Positions 1 to 13,775 of a DNA stretch of 64,000 nt are shown piece by piece (position 1 is the first letter of the stretch; each line of letters opens with the position of its first letter). Location of the stretch: positions 1-64,000 of the IMG/VR virus record IMGVR_UViG_3300030098_006058; one strand, 5' to 3'. The position numbers were made by a program, and so were the translations under genes. Under the pieces are notes generated by a model, which worked only from the letters and a program-made list of their open reading frames with translations, had not been told where the DNA came from and searched no databases. This DNA comes from a virus.

Positions 1-8
1 TTTGTGAA

Positions 9-520
9 GAAGACTATCAAATGCATATTCATATGAGGGTAATTTAATAGTCTTCAACTCCAACCAAGAGTTATGTTGTTAAAATTAAAACTATAACTAC
101 AACAGTCTACTTAAGTAGTGTAAGGGATCCTCCTTTAGAGTCTATAGTCCTCTTGTTTAAGTGTTACTATTATTCACACAACGTAAAGGGAAACGTATTT
201 CCTTCTTGCATAGCTGTAGTTATAGTTAGATTATCACTATTTCTAGGCTTATAAAAAGAAAAGGAGAGGAGGATCCACCCCCAAGGTTTCATTATACCTC
301 TCCCAATCTCTTCAATACCGTGAAAAAAATGTAACTATAATGTTACTGTAACGCTTCATTTCCCGGAGCTCTCCCAGGATCCACTTTGCATATCATTAAT
401 CAAAATGATAATCACAGTAACATTATTTAAAGTGACAGTTACTATCACTGAGTTATGAGTTTAATACTTTGCGGGTTCTCCAACCTCGGACTGTTCCAAT
501 AAATAATAATAACTCAGTTA
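9..520 (-). ncRNA. Cluster of tandem structured RNA-like elements (long closing stems enclosing internal hairpins)
   Basis: Inverted repeats at 9-17/47-55, 89-101/215-227 (13 bp), 337-349/414-426 (13 bp) and 447-456/509-518 (10 bp). Two of the stems extend by G-U pairs only when read on the minus strand. No ORF of 60 aa or more lies here. Confidence 0.5.
253..304 (-). terminator. Possible intrinsic terminator with a large loop
   Basis: Minus strand reads GGAGAGG...CCTCTCC followed by TTTTCTTTTT. Confidence 0.45.
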
Positions 521-531
521 TTATCGTTCGT

Positions 532-563
532 CCTAAATTTAGCAAAGGTTATAGATCTAGTGT
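532..563 (-). promoter_or_regulatory. Repeated motif copy 1 (candidate phage-RNAP promoter)
   Basis: Minus strand ACACTAGATCTATAACCTTTGCTAAATTTAGG, directly downstream of a terminator. Confidence 0.55.
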
Positions 564-566
564 GTT

Positions 567-597
567 AAAAAAAAGAGGAGTACCGTAGTACTCCCCT
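567..597 (-). terminator. Rho-independent terminator
   Basis: Minus strand GGGGAGTAC-TACG-GTACTCCTC-TTTTTTTT, just after the stop of ORF 612..860. Confidence 0.9.
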
Positions 598-611
598 TAC
601 ACATGAGCTGA

Positions 612-860
612 TTAGAAGCAAAGCATAACTGGTTCACCCGATCCATCAGATAAATCTGATCTTAGATCTGTGATAAGCTCTTCATTACCTTTTACAGTAA
701 TCATCTTATCGAATGCACCATTTAGCTTGAACTTACGATCTGCAGTTTTCTCTAGTTGTTTGTGAACACCTAGGAATACTACAACTCGTCCGTCTTCTAG
801 TACACGCTCAGGAGATACAGATATAATCTCTATCTCTCTTGTGTTACTTGAATTTGTCAT
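612..860 (-). CDS. Hypothetical early protein, 82 aa
   Basis: ORF track; lies between a motif copy upstream and a terminator downstream. Confidence 0.75.
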   Translation of the reverse strand: MTNSSNTREIEIISVSPERVLEDGRVVVFLGVHKQLEKTADRKFKLNGAFDKMITVKGNEELITDLRSDLSDGSGEPVMLCF

Positions 861-941
861 AGCTTAACGAATTACAAGGTTATGGATGGAACAATTCTCT
901 TAGCCACAGTTTATCTGTGTTAGGTCTATAAGACCTGCTCT

Positions 942-971
942 CCATAGATTAATACAGGTTCTATCTAGTGT
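942..971 (-). promoter_or_regulatory. Repeated motif copy 2
   Basis: Minus strand ACACTAGATAGAACCTGTATTAATCTATGG. Confidence 0.55.
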
Positions 972-994
972 TATTGTGGACACTACTGTACAAT

Positions 995-1024
995 CCATAT
1001 ATAAGAAGAGGTATGATATAGTGT
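995..1024 (-). promoter_or_regulatory. Repeated motif copy 3
   Basis: Minus strand ACACTATATCATACCTCTTCTTATATATGG, directly downstream of a terminator. Confidence 0.55.
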
Positions 1025-1030
1025 ATTGTT

Positions 1031-1060
1031 AAAAAAAGAGAGGCCAATGTGACCTCTCTC
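1031..1060 (-). terminator. Rho-independent terminator
   Basis: Minus strand GAGAGAGGTC-ACATT-GGCCTCTC-TTTTTTT, downstream of ORF 1102..1470. Confidence 0.85.
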
Positions 1061-1101
1061 TTCCTAGTTACTTAGATAACTTTGCTTTCAGCTGTTCTAC
1101 C

Positions 1102-1470
1102 TCATCTTCTAGCTGATCTAGAGCGATGTTCTTGTATCTGTATGTGATACTCACGTTCTAGCTCTTTAGCTCTATCTAGCTTCTCTTGTAGCTCTACAGT
1201 CTTCTCATGACCTTCTAGCAACATAAGATGTCCATGATACTCATTCATAGCATCCTGATGTTCTGCTATCTCAAGCTCAACCTTAAGCTTGGCTAACTTG
1301 GTTTGCATTGCATCCAATGAGTCATATGCATAGATACGTGGAAACATCTTAACAGTTGATTTACCACCTCGCATCTTAATCTCAATGGCATGCTCACACA
1401 CCTTGATCGCAAGCCTTAGCTTAGTTTGAGTTACAGACTTATTAACTAACGTATTCATTAAACTCTTCAT
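1102..1470 (-). CDS. Hypothetical helical/coiled-coil early protein, 122 aa
   Basis: ORF track; A/T-rich leader; bracketed by motif copy 4 and a terminator. Confidence 0.8.
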   Translation of the reverse strand: MKSLMNTLVNKSVTQTKLRLAIKVCEHAIEIKMRGGKSTVKMFPRIYAYDSLDAMQTKLAKLKVELEIAEHQDAMNEYHGHLMLLEGHEKTVELQEKLDRAKELEREYHIQIQEHRSRSARR

Positions 1471-1534
1471 AATAATAGATTTAATAGGTTAATGGTATGA
1501 TACAGAGCTACCATTCATGCTTCACTCTGTACTA

Positions 1535-1566
1535 CCTATCATAAGAACAGGTATATGATATAGTGT
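1535..1566 (-). promoter_or_regulatory. Repeated motif copy 4
   Basis: Minus strand ACACTATATCATATACCTGTTCTTATGATAGG. Confidence 0.55.
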
Positions 1567-1697
1567 TGAGTATATAATGCTATATATTTCATGTACGGGG
1601 GGTTTGATTCACTCTTTGGGAGGGGGGAGTTTTCCAATAATGGTCTGCATCTCTGAATACTTACCATCAAAAAAAATATTATAAAAAAATTTTTTTT

Positions 1698-1719
1698 ATT
1701 GAAAATTTAATTATATTTG
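1698..1719 (+). promoter_or_regulatory. Bacteroidota sigma70-type promoter
   Basis: TTG at about 1699 and TATATTTG (TAnnTTTG, the -7 element) at 1712-1719, upstream of the first + strand ORF. Confidence 0.65.
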
Positions 1720-1748
1720 TTTCTTATTAATATTTAAACTATAGCGAA

Positions 1749-1925
1749 ATGAATTTTATAAACTCATGGAAAAAAGGAAATAAAAAAAATAAAATTAAAA
1801 TAGCATTGAGACTAGGAACACTTACTATTCTGGAAATTTATATGTGTTTTTCATCAATGTGTGAGAAGGATTGTAAATGTCCAAGAGCAAGATTTATGGT
1901 TCTTAACTTTGGATTTGAAATATAA
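1749..1925 (+). CDS. Small protein, 58 aa (not in ORF track)
   Basis: Manual translation MNFINSWKKGNKKNKIKIALRLGTLTILEIYMCFSSMCEKDCKCPRARFMVLNFGFEI; first ORF after the promoter. Confidence 0.7.
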   Translation: MNFINSWKKGNKKNKIKIALRLGTLTILEIYMCFSSMCEKDCKCPRARFMVLNFGFEI

Positions 1926-1996
1926 TGTGTCCTTGTCCAATATGTATAGTAGCAGCCGTTGTTGTTGCTATAGGAGTAAAGGTGATTAAAAGATAA
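1925..1996 (+). CDS. Putative 23-aa membrane micropeptide (not in ORF track)
   Basis: MCPCPICIVAAVVVAIGVKVIKR; TAATG-coupled to the previous ORF and fills the gap up to 2001. Confidence 0.5.
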   Translation: MCPCPICIVAAVVVAIGVKVIKR

Positions 1997-2000
1997 TATA

Positions 2001-2552
2001 ATGGCAAAACAAAAAACACTTGATGAATTAAGAGCTGAAGCCCATAAAAAAGTATTAGAAAATATCGAAAAGAATAAAGGGAAAAAACCTAATTATTCTA
2101 ATGAAGAGGATACGAGTTGTGGAATGTTACCAGAACAAGTACCTATTGTAAATAGAGATGAAGCTAAAAAAATGTATGATAAATTACATTTAAGTTATGA
2201 GTATACAGGTAGAACTAATGATGGAACTAATAGAAAAATATGGACATTAGTAGATCCTAATAAAGAGATTGTGGGGAAAATGAAAACTTCTAAGAATAGA
2301 ATGATTAATCCGAGACCTAAAGGTCCTTGGGATGAACAATTCTCTTATATGAGCCTTTTTCATTATTATGATCATATACCAAATAAAGAAGTAAACTTTC
2401 TTCCAAGTACAACTTATTATATGAAAGAACGTGAGAATACACCACTTAATAAAGAAATGAAAAAGAGAGTAGAAGCTGGAGAGAAACTACCAGAAAGTTT
2501 TGAAGAAATGTTTAAATTGAAAAAAGAAATAGAAGATAGCGGGTTAGAGTAG
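2001..2552 (+). CDS. Hypothetical protein, 183 aa
   Basis: ORF track; the 3' end overlaps the tRNA. Confidence 0.8.
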   Translation: MAKQKTLDELRAEAHKKVLENIEKNKGKKPNYSNEEDTSCGMLPEQVPIVNRDEAKKMYDKLHLSYEYTGRTNDGTNRKIWTLVDPNKEIVGKMKTSKNRMINPRPKGPWDEQFSYMSLFHYYDHIPNKEVNFLPSTTYYMKERENTPLNKEMKKRVEAGEKLPESFEEMFKLKKEIEDSGLE

Positions 2553-2609
2553 TGGTTACTCACGGGTTTCATTAGCCCGTCTAGGTTGGTTCGATTCCAG
2601 CACCCGCAA
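2538..2609 (+). tRNA. tRNA with CAT anticodon, initiator (fMet)-like, no encoded CCA
   Basis: Cloverleaf: acceptor AGCGGGT/ACCCGCA with a 1:72 mismatch, D arm GAGT/ACTC, anticodon arm CGGGT-TTCATTA-GCCCG, T arm GTTGG-TTCGATT-CCAGC. Confidence 0.9.
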
Positions 2610-2638
2610 CTAATATAAATAATATAATATAAATAATA

Positions 2639-2947
2639 ATGGCAAAAACAGAATTAAGTCAAATTAATCAATCCATCAGAACTGGTGATCAGACTAGGTT
2701 AGGATGTGGTGCTACGTATATTGCAGCAGGTTCTGTATATAGTGGAGATTGGGTAGCTATACAATCTATCAGTACTACAGATGTAGTATTAAAAGTTAGT
2801 GGTACAGCAGAAACTATAGTAGATTGGGAAGGGGTAGCAGGTGATATCACATTAGAATCTACTGTTGGAACAAGTCCGATATGGTATGGAAACTTCACAC
2901 AGATTGAAGTAGATGCTGGAATACTATTAGCGTATAAACGTTGCTAA
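2639..2947 (+). CDS. Hypothetical beta-rich protein, possibly virion-associated
   Basis: ORF track; G/T/V-rich composition. Confidence 0.75.
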   Translation: MAKTELSQINQSIRTGDQTRLGCGATYIAAGSVYSGDWVAIQSISTTDVVLKVSGTAETIVDWEGVAGDITLESTVGTSPIWYGNFTQIEVDAGILLAYKRC

Positions 2948-2950
2948 TGC

Positions 2951-3148
2951 ATGGATAGAATAATAAAAAAATTAGCTGAGGAATATAATTTACCAGAACA
3001 GGTAATTGAAAGTATTGTTAGATCTCAGTTTAAATTTGTATGTGATAAAATGCAAGATGATGAATGTTTAAAAATAAGATTACATCATTTTGGAGTATTT
3101 AAAATTAAACCTAAAAGATTATATGTAATAAATGGAGAGATTGAGTGA
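2951..3148 (+). CDS. HU/IHF-like DNA-binding protein
   Basis: Pattern IIKKLAEEYNL...IVRSQF...IRLHHFGVFKIK resembles the HU fold, as seen in crAss-like phages. Confidence 0.7.
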   Translation: MDRIIKKLAEEYNLPEQVIESIVRSQFKFVCDKMQDDECLKIRLHHFGVFKIKPKRLYVINGEIE

Positions 3149-11279: not shown

Positions 11280-13775
11280 ATGCAGGGATTAAATCAAAAT
11301 AACATATTAGAGGAGCTACCAAAACAGAAAATAGCTAAATCTAAAAAGGGAAAAAAATGGGGAAAAGCTTGTATAGATGAATTAGAAAAAGTTACATATA
11401 GTGACATGTCTTATAATGGACGATCCTCTAGATATAGAAAACAAATTAATTATGATTTGTATAACGGTGTTTTAGATCAGAATGATTTTGAATATGTAGT
11501 CAATCCTTATGGATTTAGTAAAGATGAATTCCCAGCTAACTTACAACATTATGATATAATATCTCCCAAATTACAACTTCTAATGGGGGAAGAAATTAAA
11601 AGACCTTTTAACTTTAGAGTTGTTTCTCATGATCCTGAATCTGTTTCTAAGATGGAAGAGGTGAAGAAAGAAATGATGATGGAATTTCTATATAGTGTAT
11701 TAGTACCACCACAAGTACAACAACAGCAACAACAAGAAATGATGCAGATGCAACAACAGGGAGCATCTGAAGAGGAGATGCAAATGGCACAGCCAAAAAC
11801 ACCTGCTCAAATAGAAAAATACATAGCATACGAATATCAAGATGTTAGAGAAAAACAAGGTCAAAATATTTTAGAATATCTAGTTAAAAATCAAAATATA
11901 GAAAATAAGTTCAATGCAGGATTTAAGGATGCTTTAATCGCAGGAGAAGAAATTTATTGGGTAGGCGAAGTTGCAGGTGAACCTGTAGTAAGAGTATGTA
12001 ATCCTTTAGACGTACGTGTTATATTAGATCCAGACTCACCTTGGATAGAAGATGCTCAATCTGTAGTAGAAGAAAGATGGTTAACATTAGCAACTGTTAT
12101 TGATGAATATCATGAATATTTAACTCCTCAAGAAATAGATAAATTAGAAAAAGGATGGGGAGGTAGAGATAGTTATATGGATAGTAACGGTGTTAATTAT
12201 CCATATTCAGAATTTAATATTGTTAATTATGATGCAAGAGGAACTTTTGATCCAGAGCATATTCGAAGTTATAGACGAGATGGTATGATTCGTGTTATAC
12301 AATGCGAATGGAAATCTATGCGTAAAGTAGGATTTATAACTTATAAAGATGAGATAGGATTTGAACAACAAGATATTGTAGATGAAATTTTTGAAGTACC
12401 AGAAGAAGCAGAAAAAAATAAAGATGGAGAATGGGTATTTGGAGGAATGCGTTTAAAATGGCATTGGATAAGTGAATATTGGGAAGGTACAAAAATAGCT
12501 GAAGATATTTATTTAAATATTAAGCCTAAAGAAAACCAAAGAAGAGATATGGATAATCCTAGTAATGTCAAATCTGGATATGTAGGATATATTTATAATG
12601 AAAGAAATTCAGAATCTATTTCCTTGATAGATCGTATGAAACCATATCAGTATTTGTATAATATTATTTATTATCGAACTGAATTAGCTTTAGCAAAATC
12701 AAAAGGTAAAGTGGCTTTAATGGATATTTCACAAATACCTTCATCAGAAGGATGGGACGTTTCTAAGTGGATGTACTATCTAGAAGCTGTAGGTGTGATG
12801 TTTATTAACTCCAGAGAGGAGGGGAATAGATCCCAGCAAGCCCCGCAATTTAATCAATTCCAATCTATTGATCTTTCTATGGGTAATTATATTAATACTC
12901 ATGTCCAACTATTAGATCAAATCAAAAATGAGATTGGAGAACTCTCTGGAGTTTCTAGACAAAGACAAGGACAGGTTCAAACTTCTGAACTTGTAGGAAA
13001 TACTGAACGAGCTGTTGTTCAGTCTTCTCATATTACAGAATATTGGTTTTATAATCATAGTGAAGTTAAAAGAAAAGTATTACAAGCATTAATCGATGTA
13101 GCAAAAATGGCTTGGAAGAGTGGTAAGAAAATTCAATATATTATGGATGACATGAGTCGAGTATTTCTTAATCTAGAAACTGATGATTTTTCTAGTACTA
13201 ATTATGGAGTATTTGTTTCTAATTCTGGTAAAGATGATAGAGCAGTAGATTCAATGAGACAATTAGCTCAACAAGCTCTTCAAGCAGGAGTAACTAATTT
13301 CTCAGATGTAGCAAGTATTATGCAGTCAGAATCATTAGGTGATATGAAACGAAAACTAGTAGATGCAGAAAATAAAATGCAACAAAAACAAGCTGAAGAT
13401 GGTCAAAGACAACAACAGATGCAGCAACAAGCAGCTCAATTAGCGCAGCAAACAGAACAAATGAAGCAAGATAGAGAAGATGCACGTGCTCAATTAGAAG
13501 CAGATACTAAGATTAGAGTGGCAGAGATTAATGCTGAAGCTAGGTTAGCTGATCAAGATGATAATAATGATGGTTATATTGATATACAAAATCGAGATAA
13601 TGATGTTAAATTAGAATCAGATAAAGAAAAAATAAATTTACAACGAGAAAAACAACAAGCAGAACTTGGATTGAAACAGCAAGAAATGGAAGAAAAGAAA
13701 AGAGCTAACCAAGCTAATGAGCAAATAAAAAGAACTGCTGCAAATAAGAAACCTAATGCCGGAGGATCCAAATAA
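11280..13775 (+). CDS. Portal protein (crAss/P22-like)
   Basis: Follows TerL; LPKQK, NYDLYNG, LMGEEIKRPF and GVSRQRQGQV motifs; Q-rich coiled-coil barrel. Confidence 0.92.
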   Translation: MQGLNQNNILEELPKQKIAKSKKGKKWGKACIDELEKVTYSDMSYNGRSSRYRKQINYDLYNGVLDQNDFEYVVNPYGFSKDEFPANLQHYDIISPKLQLLMGEEIKRPFNFRVVSHDPESVSKMEEVKKEMMMEFLYSVLVPPQVQQQQQQEMMQMQQQGASEEEMQMAQPKTPAQIEKYIAYEYQDVREKQGQNILEYLVKNQNIENKFNAGFKDALIAGEEIYWVGEVAGEPVVRVCNPLDVRVILDPDSPWIEDAQSVVEERWLTLATVIDEYHEYLTPQEIDKLEKGWGGRDSYMDSNGVNYPYSEFNIVNYDARGTFDPEHIRSYRRDGMIRVIQCEWKSMRKVGFITYKDEIGFEQQDIVDEIFEVPEEAEKNKDGEWVFGGMRLKWHWISEYWEGTKIAEDIYLNIKPKENQRRDMDNPSNVKSGYVGYIYNERNSESISLIDRMKPYQYLYNIIYYRTELALAKSKGKVALMDISQIPSSEGWDVSKWMYYLEAVGVMFINSREEGNRSQQAPQFNQFQSIDLSMGNYINTHVQLLDQIKNEIGELSGVSRQRQGQVQTSELVGNTERAVVQSSHITEYWFYNHSEVKRKVLQALIDVAKMAWKSGKKIQYIMDDMSRVFLNLETDDFSSTNYGVFVSNSGKDDRAVDSMRQLAQQALQAGVTNFSDVASIMQSESLGDMKRKLVDAENKMQQKQAEDGQRQQQMQQQAAQLAQQTEQMKQDREDARAQLEADTKIRVAEINAEARLADQDDNNDGYIDIQNRDNDVKLESDKEKINLQREKQQAELGLKQQEMEEKKRANQANEQIKRTAANKKPNAGGSK

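Follow-up and report, generated by a model that had tools for sequence, protein, structure and literature searches.

A strand-specific element repeated at the head of the replication-gene arm of a marine crAss-like phage: candidate early promoters for the injected RNA polymerase

The DNA analysed here, called the window below, comprises bases 1-64000 of the 89,108-bp virus record IMGVR_UViG_3300030098_006058, and the element under study is a short sequence that recurs on the minus strand near the left end of that window. The terminase of this phage is at most 42% identical to that of any record in the phage collection searched, and its best matches all belong to crAss-like phages; a megablast search of window 1-3000 against phage records gave no match. 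The genes are arranged in two divergent arms. The plus strand carries, from 2001 to 70653, the structural genes together with the gene for a 5,711-amino acid (aa) protein (record 53177-70312), residues 2100-4300 of which match gp66 of phage phi14:2 (6VR4) with an E value of 5.3e-30, and which has DFDID at residue 3445. To our knowledge, the Crassvirales rank with the most abundant phages, and a giant two-barrel RNA polymerase (RNAP), referred to here as the virion RNAP (vRNAP), is injected by every one of them. The minus arm (record 70657-88401, running on into window 1566-1) is the replication module and encodes PolA, helicases (DnaB-like), a primase, a PD-(D/E)XK nuclease and rIIA/B. The repeated element forms an array that heads this arm, directly past the point at which the two arms diverge.

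An earlier reading of the sequence alone had described four minus-strand copies of the pattern ACACTAKAT-N3-5-ACCT-N12-GG and proposed that they are promoters of the vRNAP or of another phage factor. The full pattern matched the window exactly four times, always on the minus strand (Table 1), and the claimed spacing of 12 nt between ACCT and GG held in all four copies; no match was obtained in 100 dinucleotide-preserving shuffles of the window. When the whole record was scanned, five matches were found on the reverse strand, none on the forward strand and none for the reversed control, the fifth copy lying outside the window at record 88659-88690 (-). The 9-mer ACACTAKAT taken by itself was not significant, as its five matches (the fifth at 11690-11698) compare with 2.49 on average in shuffles, 12 of 100 of which had at least as many. 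A sequence-only covariance model built from 19 sites of the family described below recognised nothing but the five copies in this record at E values of 5.3e-4 or lower; the next match was a 17-nt partial one with an E value of 0.066. Two copies had also been said to follow shortly after terminator T-runs, and copies 2 and 4 indeed start 6 and 3 nt after such runs.

A terminase search yielded 48 related IMG/VR loci (529,628 bases). Because the motif in the form seen in this record was absent from all 48, the family was defined more widely. On the same strand and at the same place, the relatives carry a T-run followed by TTAGATC, N3-4, GACCWTTAC and T.A...TTGG, and the pooled form (T-run, TAGATC, N3-4, RACCWTTAC, N8, GG) gave 52 matches, representing 38 distinct sequences. 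The original pattern is real, but its leading ACAC is specific to this lineage, and the conserved core is TAGATC...RACCWTTAC...GG. Six positions (A12, C14, C21, C22, A30 and G36) are invariant in the 38 distinct sites, and A20, C27, A16 and T25 are nearly so. Two departures from the common form were seen: the lineage of genome G001 has a variant with a TATGACC box and a GC start, and the more distant L062, whose terminase is 65% identical, has three copies with the core ATAACTCCTACTAAT.

Related marine crAss-like genomes have two to five copies each, which head the replication arm, share one strand and fall within about 1-2 kb. For each of the five complete relatives, all matches of the covariance model with an E value below 1e-3 (two to three per genome) lay on one strand within about 1 kb, and weaker matches elsewhere were few (E of 0.0019 or higher). 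A scan giving same-strand matches in the early region only, which the sequence-only reading had predicted, was thus what we obtained, both here and in the complete relatives. Among the 48 loci, the model gave 28 matches with E below 0.01, all of them on the strand opposite to that of the terminase (contig L011 is in the other orientation), and six further contigs had two to four same-strand copies each. The strict family pattern matched 10 viral contigs and had no match in 185,579 prokaryote genomes (one per species; 596 Gb). The pattern in the form of this record was found in nine stretches of viral contigs, among which only L011 is a relative; seven contigs sharing one identical single site (L007-L010 and L012-L014) and L006 with another were treated as unrelated. 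We also considered a hairpin or RNA structure as the conserved feature of the motif and rejected it, since RNAalifold predicted no pairs in the family sites and a hand-set 5-bp helix paired in 71.6% of cells versus 65.1% in shuffles, with slid controls reaching 62%. The conservation of the motif is that of a linear sequence.

Terminator T-runs adjoin most copies of the element. A run of at least five T lies directly upstream of 27 of the 38 distinct sites, which bears out the promoter-gene-terminator cassettes proposed by the sequence-only reading; by a crude fold criterion (a hairpin with a minimum free energy of -8 or lower plus a T-run), 13 of 37 evaluable sites passed. The 60-nt stretches upstream of copies 2 and 4 fold at -21.6 and -19.7 kcal/mol. 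The 11 sites that have no T-run are mostly the first copy of each genome, and that copy is preceded by a conserved non-coding block. Downstream of the copies are small open reading frames (ORFs) at variable distance, or no ORF. The ORFs of the cassettes (122, 82 and 74 aa) matched no Pfam or PHROGs family, a 102-aa ORF giving one weak PHROG match, and among the loci compared their homologues were confined to the near-identical L011/L015 contig. By contrast, the 234-aa gene past the last copy is conserved in all relatives, indicating that the copies bracket a hyperplastic stretch. When the 234-aa protein was used as a query for relatives, the L011 contig was the sole find. The unit behind copy 4 is non-coding, with a predicted fold of -53.9 kcal/mol and no match to an Rfam family; its RNA, about 207 nt long, has the highest cover of any part of the region in the metatranscriptome examined below, and it is absent from L011, a relative that is 97% identical.

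RNA evidence was sought in assembled contigs of two marine metatranscriptome runs (X1 and X2) from one study, which were compared with window 1-2700. A 164-nt contig of X1 (depth 2.5) spans 836-996: it has its upper end at the first G of copy 2 and extends across copy 3 into the 82-aa ORF. A 207-nt contig of the same run (depth 12.8) covers 324-530 with one differing letter, having its upper end 3 nt past the first G of copy 4 and its lower end inside the T7 run at 329-323. By our own estimate, the chance of a contig having either of its ends within 3 nt of one of the four GGs in 2.7 kb is about 0.02 per contig. The rest of window 1-1800 had no contig cover, and uncovered parts of 1-2700 are no sign of silence. 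Assembly breaks at repeats were considered as the cause of the contig ends and discarded, since no 31-mer is common to the motif copies, 31 being what we take to be the word length of the assembly, and the repeat S5 (Table 1) would break a unitig at about 305 rather than at 324. Contigs show neither strand nor true transcript ends, so that their ending at the GG is support and not proof. The X2 run covered 1877-2045 only, with two RNA contigs over the start of the first plus-strand gene, which are uninformative on the motif; in one of them, 154 nt before 1877 form a loose end, suggesting a variant sequence upstream.

Relatives provide a second indication of the start site. The first early gene of most relatives (L021, L022, L025, L031, L034, L035, L087, L090, L092, L093 and L095) is a conserved ORF of 80-95 aa; in 11 of 12 first-copy sites, its ATG follows G36 at a distance of exactly 3 nt. 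Transcription would accordingly have to start at or before that point, and the first message would be nearly leaderless. The protein encoded by this first early gene, which is absent from the genome under study, starts with MDN or MVD and in many cases ends with GYIEL; it diverges between lineages while its first residues are kept. A start at or near the GG, as the sequence-only reading had placed it, is supported both by the RNA contig ends and by the position of this ORF 3 nt past the first G. Taken with the confinement of same-strand matches to the early region here and in the five complete relatives, this makes it highly probable that the copies function as promoters.

The cassettes between the copies turn over. 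An independent TARA scaffold, 98.6-99.7% identical, bridges the ends of the record unbroken and has the order terminator, copy 2, copy 3, 82-aa ORF, terminator, copy 4, non-coding unit, S5, cassette B, S3, copy 5 and 234-aa gene, so that copy 5 comes next downstream of copy 4 in the same direction of transcription. The inserts between S5 and S3 differ at the two ends of the record, and L011 carries a third allele. Since the TARA scaffold and L011 have one S5-S3 slot each, the record most likely traverses a single polymorphic slot two times, once with allele A and once with allele B; a tandem arrangement of slots in this strain is the lesser possibility. IMG/VR calls the record linear, probably because its ends are two alleles of one slot. 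Homology with L011 stops at window 531, the base after the GG of copy 4, and resumes in S5, which is one clear case of replacement; what differs from L011 beyond copy 4 is a whole transcribed unit. As the only sequence common to the cassettes, the signal may also serve as a homology patch by which strains gain, lose or swap cassettes, and such turnover at the signal may be how these phages renew their first-expressed genes.

Table 1. Features of the motif array, listed in the direction of minus-strand transcription (window coordinates unless marked as record)
Feature	Position	Strand	Remarks
Conserved non-coding block	1595..1722	-	directly upstream of copy 1; 16-mer at 1637-1652; C6 runs at 1622-1627 and 1597-1602
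Motif copy 1	1535..1566	-	pattern; model E 6.6e-5; heads unit with 122-aa ORF
122-aa ORF, payload of unit 1	1102..1470	-	no known family; starts 66 nt past first G of copy 1
Terminator-like hairpin + T7, ends unit 1	1031..1065	-	upstream 60 nt -21.6 kcal/mol; missed by consensus scan
Motif copy 2, 30-nt form	995..1024	-	pattern, model; RNA contig begins at first G (996)
Motif copy 3, 30-nt form	942..971	-	53 nt downstream of copy 2; RNA contig from 996 reads through
82-aa ORF, payload of unit 2	612..860	-	no known family
Intrinsic terminator, ends unit 2	567..598	-	11-bp stem + T8; hairpin 598-573
Motif copy 4	532..563	-	model E 1.4e-7; heads non-coding unit; replacement breakpoint at 3' end
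Non-coding unit, about 207 nt	324..531	-	15-bp stem (426-412 with 351-337), then T7 at 329-323
S5, left flank of slot, 95 nt	240..334	-	identical to record 89014-89108; terminator-like hairpin 282-265
Cassette allele A, non-coding	73..239	-	variable slot
Cassette allele B, 74-aa ORF	record 88763-89013	-	variable slot, outside window
S3, right flank of slot, 72 nt	1..72	-	identical to record 88691-88762; there copy 5 directly next

Promoters recognised by the primary sigma factor of Bacteroidota have TAnnTTTG at -7 and, about 19-21 bp upstream, TTTG at -33. Canonical TTTG-N-TAnnTTTG sequences were found in three intergenic gaps of the plus strand (window 11229, 34967 and 46252), and full TTTG/TAnnTTTG sites numbered six on the plus strand and one on the minus strand; the motif copies coincided with none of these. 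The canonical plus-strand sites indicate a Bacteroidota host and late transcription by host RNAP. A TATATTTG box is also present at the head of the plus arm, at 1712-1719 (+). The TAnnTTTG box is absent from 34 of the 38 family sites and from all five copies of this record, in agreement with the earlier statement that the motif does not resemble the host promoter used on the plus strand. No Sigma70_r2 domain is encoded by the phage, in a search that detected its control in 11 of 14 genomes; PF00940 (T7-like RNAP) had no match in the record either, in a search that detected its control in 0 of 14 genomes.

The explanation that we favour is that the copies are phage-specific early promoters, each a linear DNA signal of about 30 bp. 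With the first G taken as +1, TAGATC would lie at about -26 to -21, RACC at -17 to -14 and WTTACTWA at -13 to -6, followed by an AT-rich segment from -5 to -1 and by GG at +1/+2, where transcription would start. Each unit would close with an intrinsic terminator, its T-run abutting the promoter of the next unit, and the outcome would be a short array of self-contained cassettes that carry small ORFans or non-coding RNAs and head the replication-gene arm. From the last copy, transcription would extend over the conserved 234-aa gene and probably over the arm that follows. The reading enzyme would most likely be the injected vRNAP, that is, the central part of the 5,711-aa protein; we infer this from the analogy with phi14:2, in which the corresponding arm depends on the vRNAP, and from the absence of host-type features, and consider it somewhat more probable than all other assignments taken together. 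The explanation as a whole commands about the same modest assurance, slightly better than an even balance.

A more specific form of this proposal is that the vRNAP reads the duplex promoter directly, starts at the GG to give a near-leaderless message, and has a fast-diverging core with which the upstream box co-evolves; we offer it tentatively, as an idea a little more apt to fail than to hold. Genomes with 84-98% identical terminases share only 41-63% identity in the vRNAP core (residues 2801-3800), the exception being G003/G004 with 91%. On these comparisons, the injected polymerase evolves, or gets exchanged, far faster than the structural genes. G000, G001 and G005, with terminases 91-94% identical and vRNAP cores 41-46% identical, have three motif variants, and G002-G004, with cores 62-91% identical, have one; among these six genomes there is, then, a weak tendency for the motif variants to differ most where the cores differ most.

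Several observations weigh against assigning the signal to the vRNAP. Phages with vRNAP cores only 41-63% identical have the motif core ACC..TTAC in common, which a more conserved reader would fit equally well. Four of the 38 sites do carry the TAnnTTTG box, and a TATATTTG sequence lies about 20 nt downstream of copy 5. Both RNA contigs come from one run of one study, one of them at a depth of 2.5. Within the arm, the motif does not extend past the first 2 kb, and in phi14:2 the whole replication arm is reported to be rifampicin-resistant (10.1101/2020.03.07.982082). The same study, the only one on this enzyme in the literature searched, states that no common motif was found upstream of the early transcripts and that phi14:2 gp66 was assayed on denatured DNA (10.1101/2020.03.07.982082), so that the crAss-type enzyme may read no duplex consensus. 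With our covariance model, the first 12 kb of phi14:2 gave no hit (best E value 0.27).

The chief rival is a promoter read by host RNAP, using either an alternative sigma factor or the primary sigma factor with a host or virion-delivered activator that binds TAGATC/RACC. Like a Bacteroidota promoter, the element is AT-rich and the DNA upstream of the sites is T-rich; the 3' part of the family consensus, TWANNNTTGG, approaches the -7 box, which is matched by the four sites mentioned above, and a host enzyme would explain why the core is kept despite very divergent vRNAPs. The middle promoters of phi14:2 are reported to be extended tripartite motifs of host type (10.1101/2020.03.07.982082). On the other hand, the box is missing from the great majority of sites, and TAGATC and RACC have no counterpart in the Bacteroidota promoter. 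Column 26, which would hold the flipped-out A of a -10 element, varies, whereas T25 and A30 are fixed. G996 is inside an RNA contig and the ATG of the relatives follows G36 by 3 nt, which is too close for a -7 box ending at G36. Moreover, the strict pattern is absent from the 596 Gb of prokaryote genomes, and the phage's own late intergenic sites are canonical. We therefore regard reading by host RNAP as unlikely, though it is the alternative to be taken most seriously.

The other explanations do without promoter function. The motif could act in RNA, as a processing or 5'-end-defining site at which an endonuclease cuts a long early transcript before the GG; the early regions of T7-type phages are cut into units in this way, and cleavage would equally give contig ends at the GG. 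Such a role is improbable, given that terminator T-runs directly upstream of 27 of the 38 sites should let little RNA enter the motif, that the contig from 996 passes copy 3 uncut, that upstream of first-copy sites there is no unit from which they could be cut, and that the motif has no conserved secondary structure (0 pairs; the helix in 72% of cells versus 65% in shuffles). Only marginally better is the chance that the element lacks a start function of its own, whether it mainly binds a protein or undergoes recombination during cassette exchange or serves an early repressor as its operator. The breakpoint against the 97%-identical relative at the 3' end of copy 4 is what an exchange site would leave, as is a motif that stays while the cassette contents vary between relatives, but the strict orientation, the fixed spacing to an invariant G, the AT-rich segment from -5 to -1, the abutment of a start codon and the RNA ends at the GG are all promoter-like, and no recombinase was found beside the array among the proteins scanned. 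Shared promoters are in any case sufficient for exchange in the T4-type PeSLs (PMC4122927). That the copies are functionless remnants of local duplication is scarcely credible: copies 1 and 2 do have a longer stretch in common, ACACTATATCAT, but the flanks are unrelated, the motif stays in register across genomes with unrelated cassettes, and the strand-specific family matches together with six invariant positions in 38 sites already contradict this origin.

If the vRNAP does read the duplex element directly, Crassvirales would gain with it their first promoter defined by sequence for this class of polymerase. The element supplies a signal of 30 bp in which six positions are invariant, a likely start base and a short, highly expressed non-coding template (window 324-563), and with these the promoter question for the crAss-type vRNAP becomes directly testable by in vitro transcription and mutation. 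The signal would permit annotation of early genes in uncultured marine relatives, and could seed an orthogonal expression system for Bacteroidota. We found no published promoter consensus for a crAss-type vRNAP in the literature searched; the word 'promoter' has 0 occurrences in a 2023 review of the Crassvirales (PMC10136315), and host promoters are the sole kind discussed in the paper on the crAss001 transcriptome.

Other features of the region deserve mention. The conserved block upstream of copy 1 lies between the two divergent arms and is retained by all relatives, being 79-81% identical in those whose flanking early units are unrelated. Its 16-mer AGATGCAGACCATTAT is invariant in 8 of 8 aligned genomes; possible roles of the block are those of an origin, a packaging signal or the place where a polymerase first enters. 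Owing to a partial likeness to the core, the 16-mer was considered as a look-alike of the motif and set aside, not being significant alone (one match against 0.74 expected). No tRNA or known RNA family was detected at the motif units; the search returned only a tRNA-Met (CAT) at window 2538-2610 (+) and weak sub-threshold Rfam matches. The tRNA gene overlaps the end of a 183-aa ORF (2001-2552), and the tRNA region is kept in relatives. Outside the window, at record 86674-86750 (-), there is a tmRNA-like match to RF00023 (42.3 bits against a gathering threshold of 47; E value 1.2e-14) in an ORF-poor 2.4-kb stretch of the minus arm, where ARAGORN calls nothing. Two near-identical hairpins, also outside the window at record 87651-87675 and 87253-87277 (-), have the form CCTGAACATGA ... 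ACTGTTCA followed by T or A runs. They follow the genes for the 234-aa and 102-aa proteins and may act as terminators or in regulation.

Among known systems, phage N4 has a few promoters at the head of its early region, units closed by terminators, and a polymerase that enters with the DNA. The array described here has the same plan, the entry of its reader with the DNA being the inferred part. The N4 promoters are DNA hairpins and the N4 vRNAP is T7-like, whereas here no hairpin is conserved and the polymerase is of the two-barrel gp66 type. The early promoters of T4 are read by host RNAP. In the T4-type PeSL, a terminator stem-loop and an early promoter form a composite that is a point of modular exchange (PMC4122927). 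Both systems have a terminator stem-loop followed directly by an early promoter, a hyperplastic region of small ORFans, and indels or replacements that end at the composite; here the terminator T-run adjoins the motif in 27 of 38 sites, and the replacement relative to L011 ends at copy 4. The signal is nevertheless unlike the host consensus, and it forms one short block heading one arm rather than many regions genome-wide as in T4. Because its promoter is not of host type, the array is not a member of the T4 PeSL family.

In its polymerase the phage resembles phi14:2, whose enzyme belongs to the same family as judged by the 6VR4 match. In phi14:2, as reported, the replication module forms the early, rifampicin-resistant class, and abundant early non-coding RNAs lie between small genes at the head of the arm (10.1101/2020.03.07.982082); a non-coding RNA among small ORFs at the head of the replication arm is likewise what we find here. 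For the Thermus phage P23-45, AT-rich pre-early promoters of a two-barrel vRNAP fused to the tape measure protein were defined by cappable-seq and ChIP-seq, and the motif is common to relatives that carry the fusion (PMC10770324). P23-45 belongs to another lineage with another host, and the assignment there is experimental, whereas here it is contig ends that mark the presumed starts. The two systems share a single-subunit two-barrel vRNAP fused to a giant virion protein and a linear motif that precedes the first transcripts, and in P23-45 there is accordingly an earlier example of a linear motif assigned to a two-barrel vRNAP of the fused kind.

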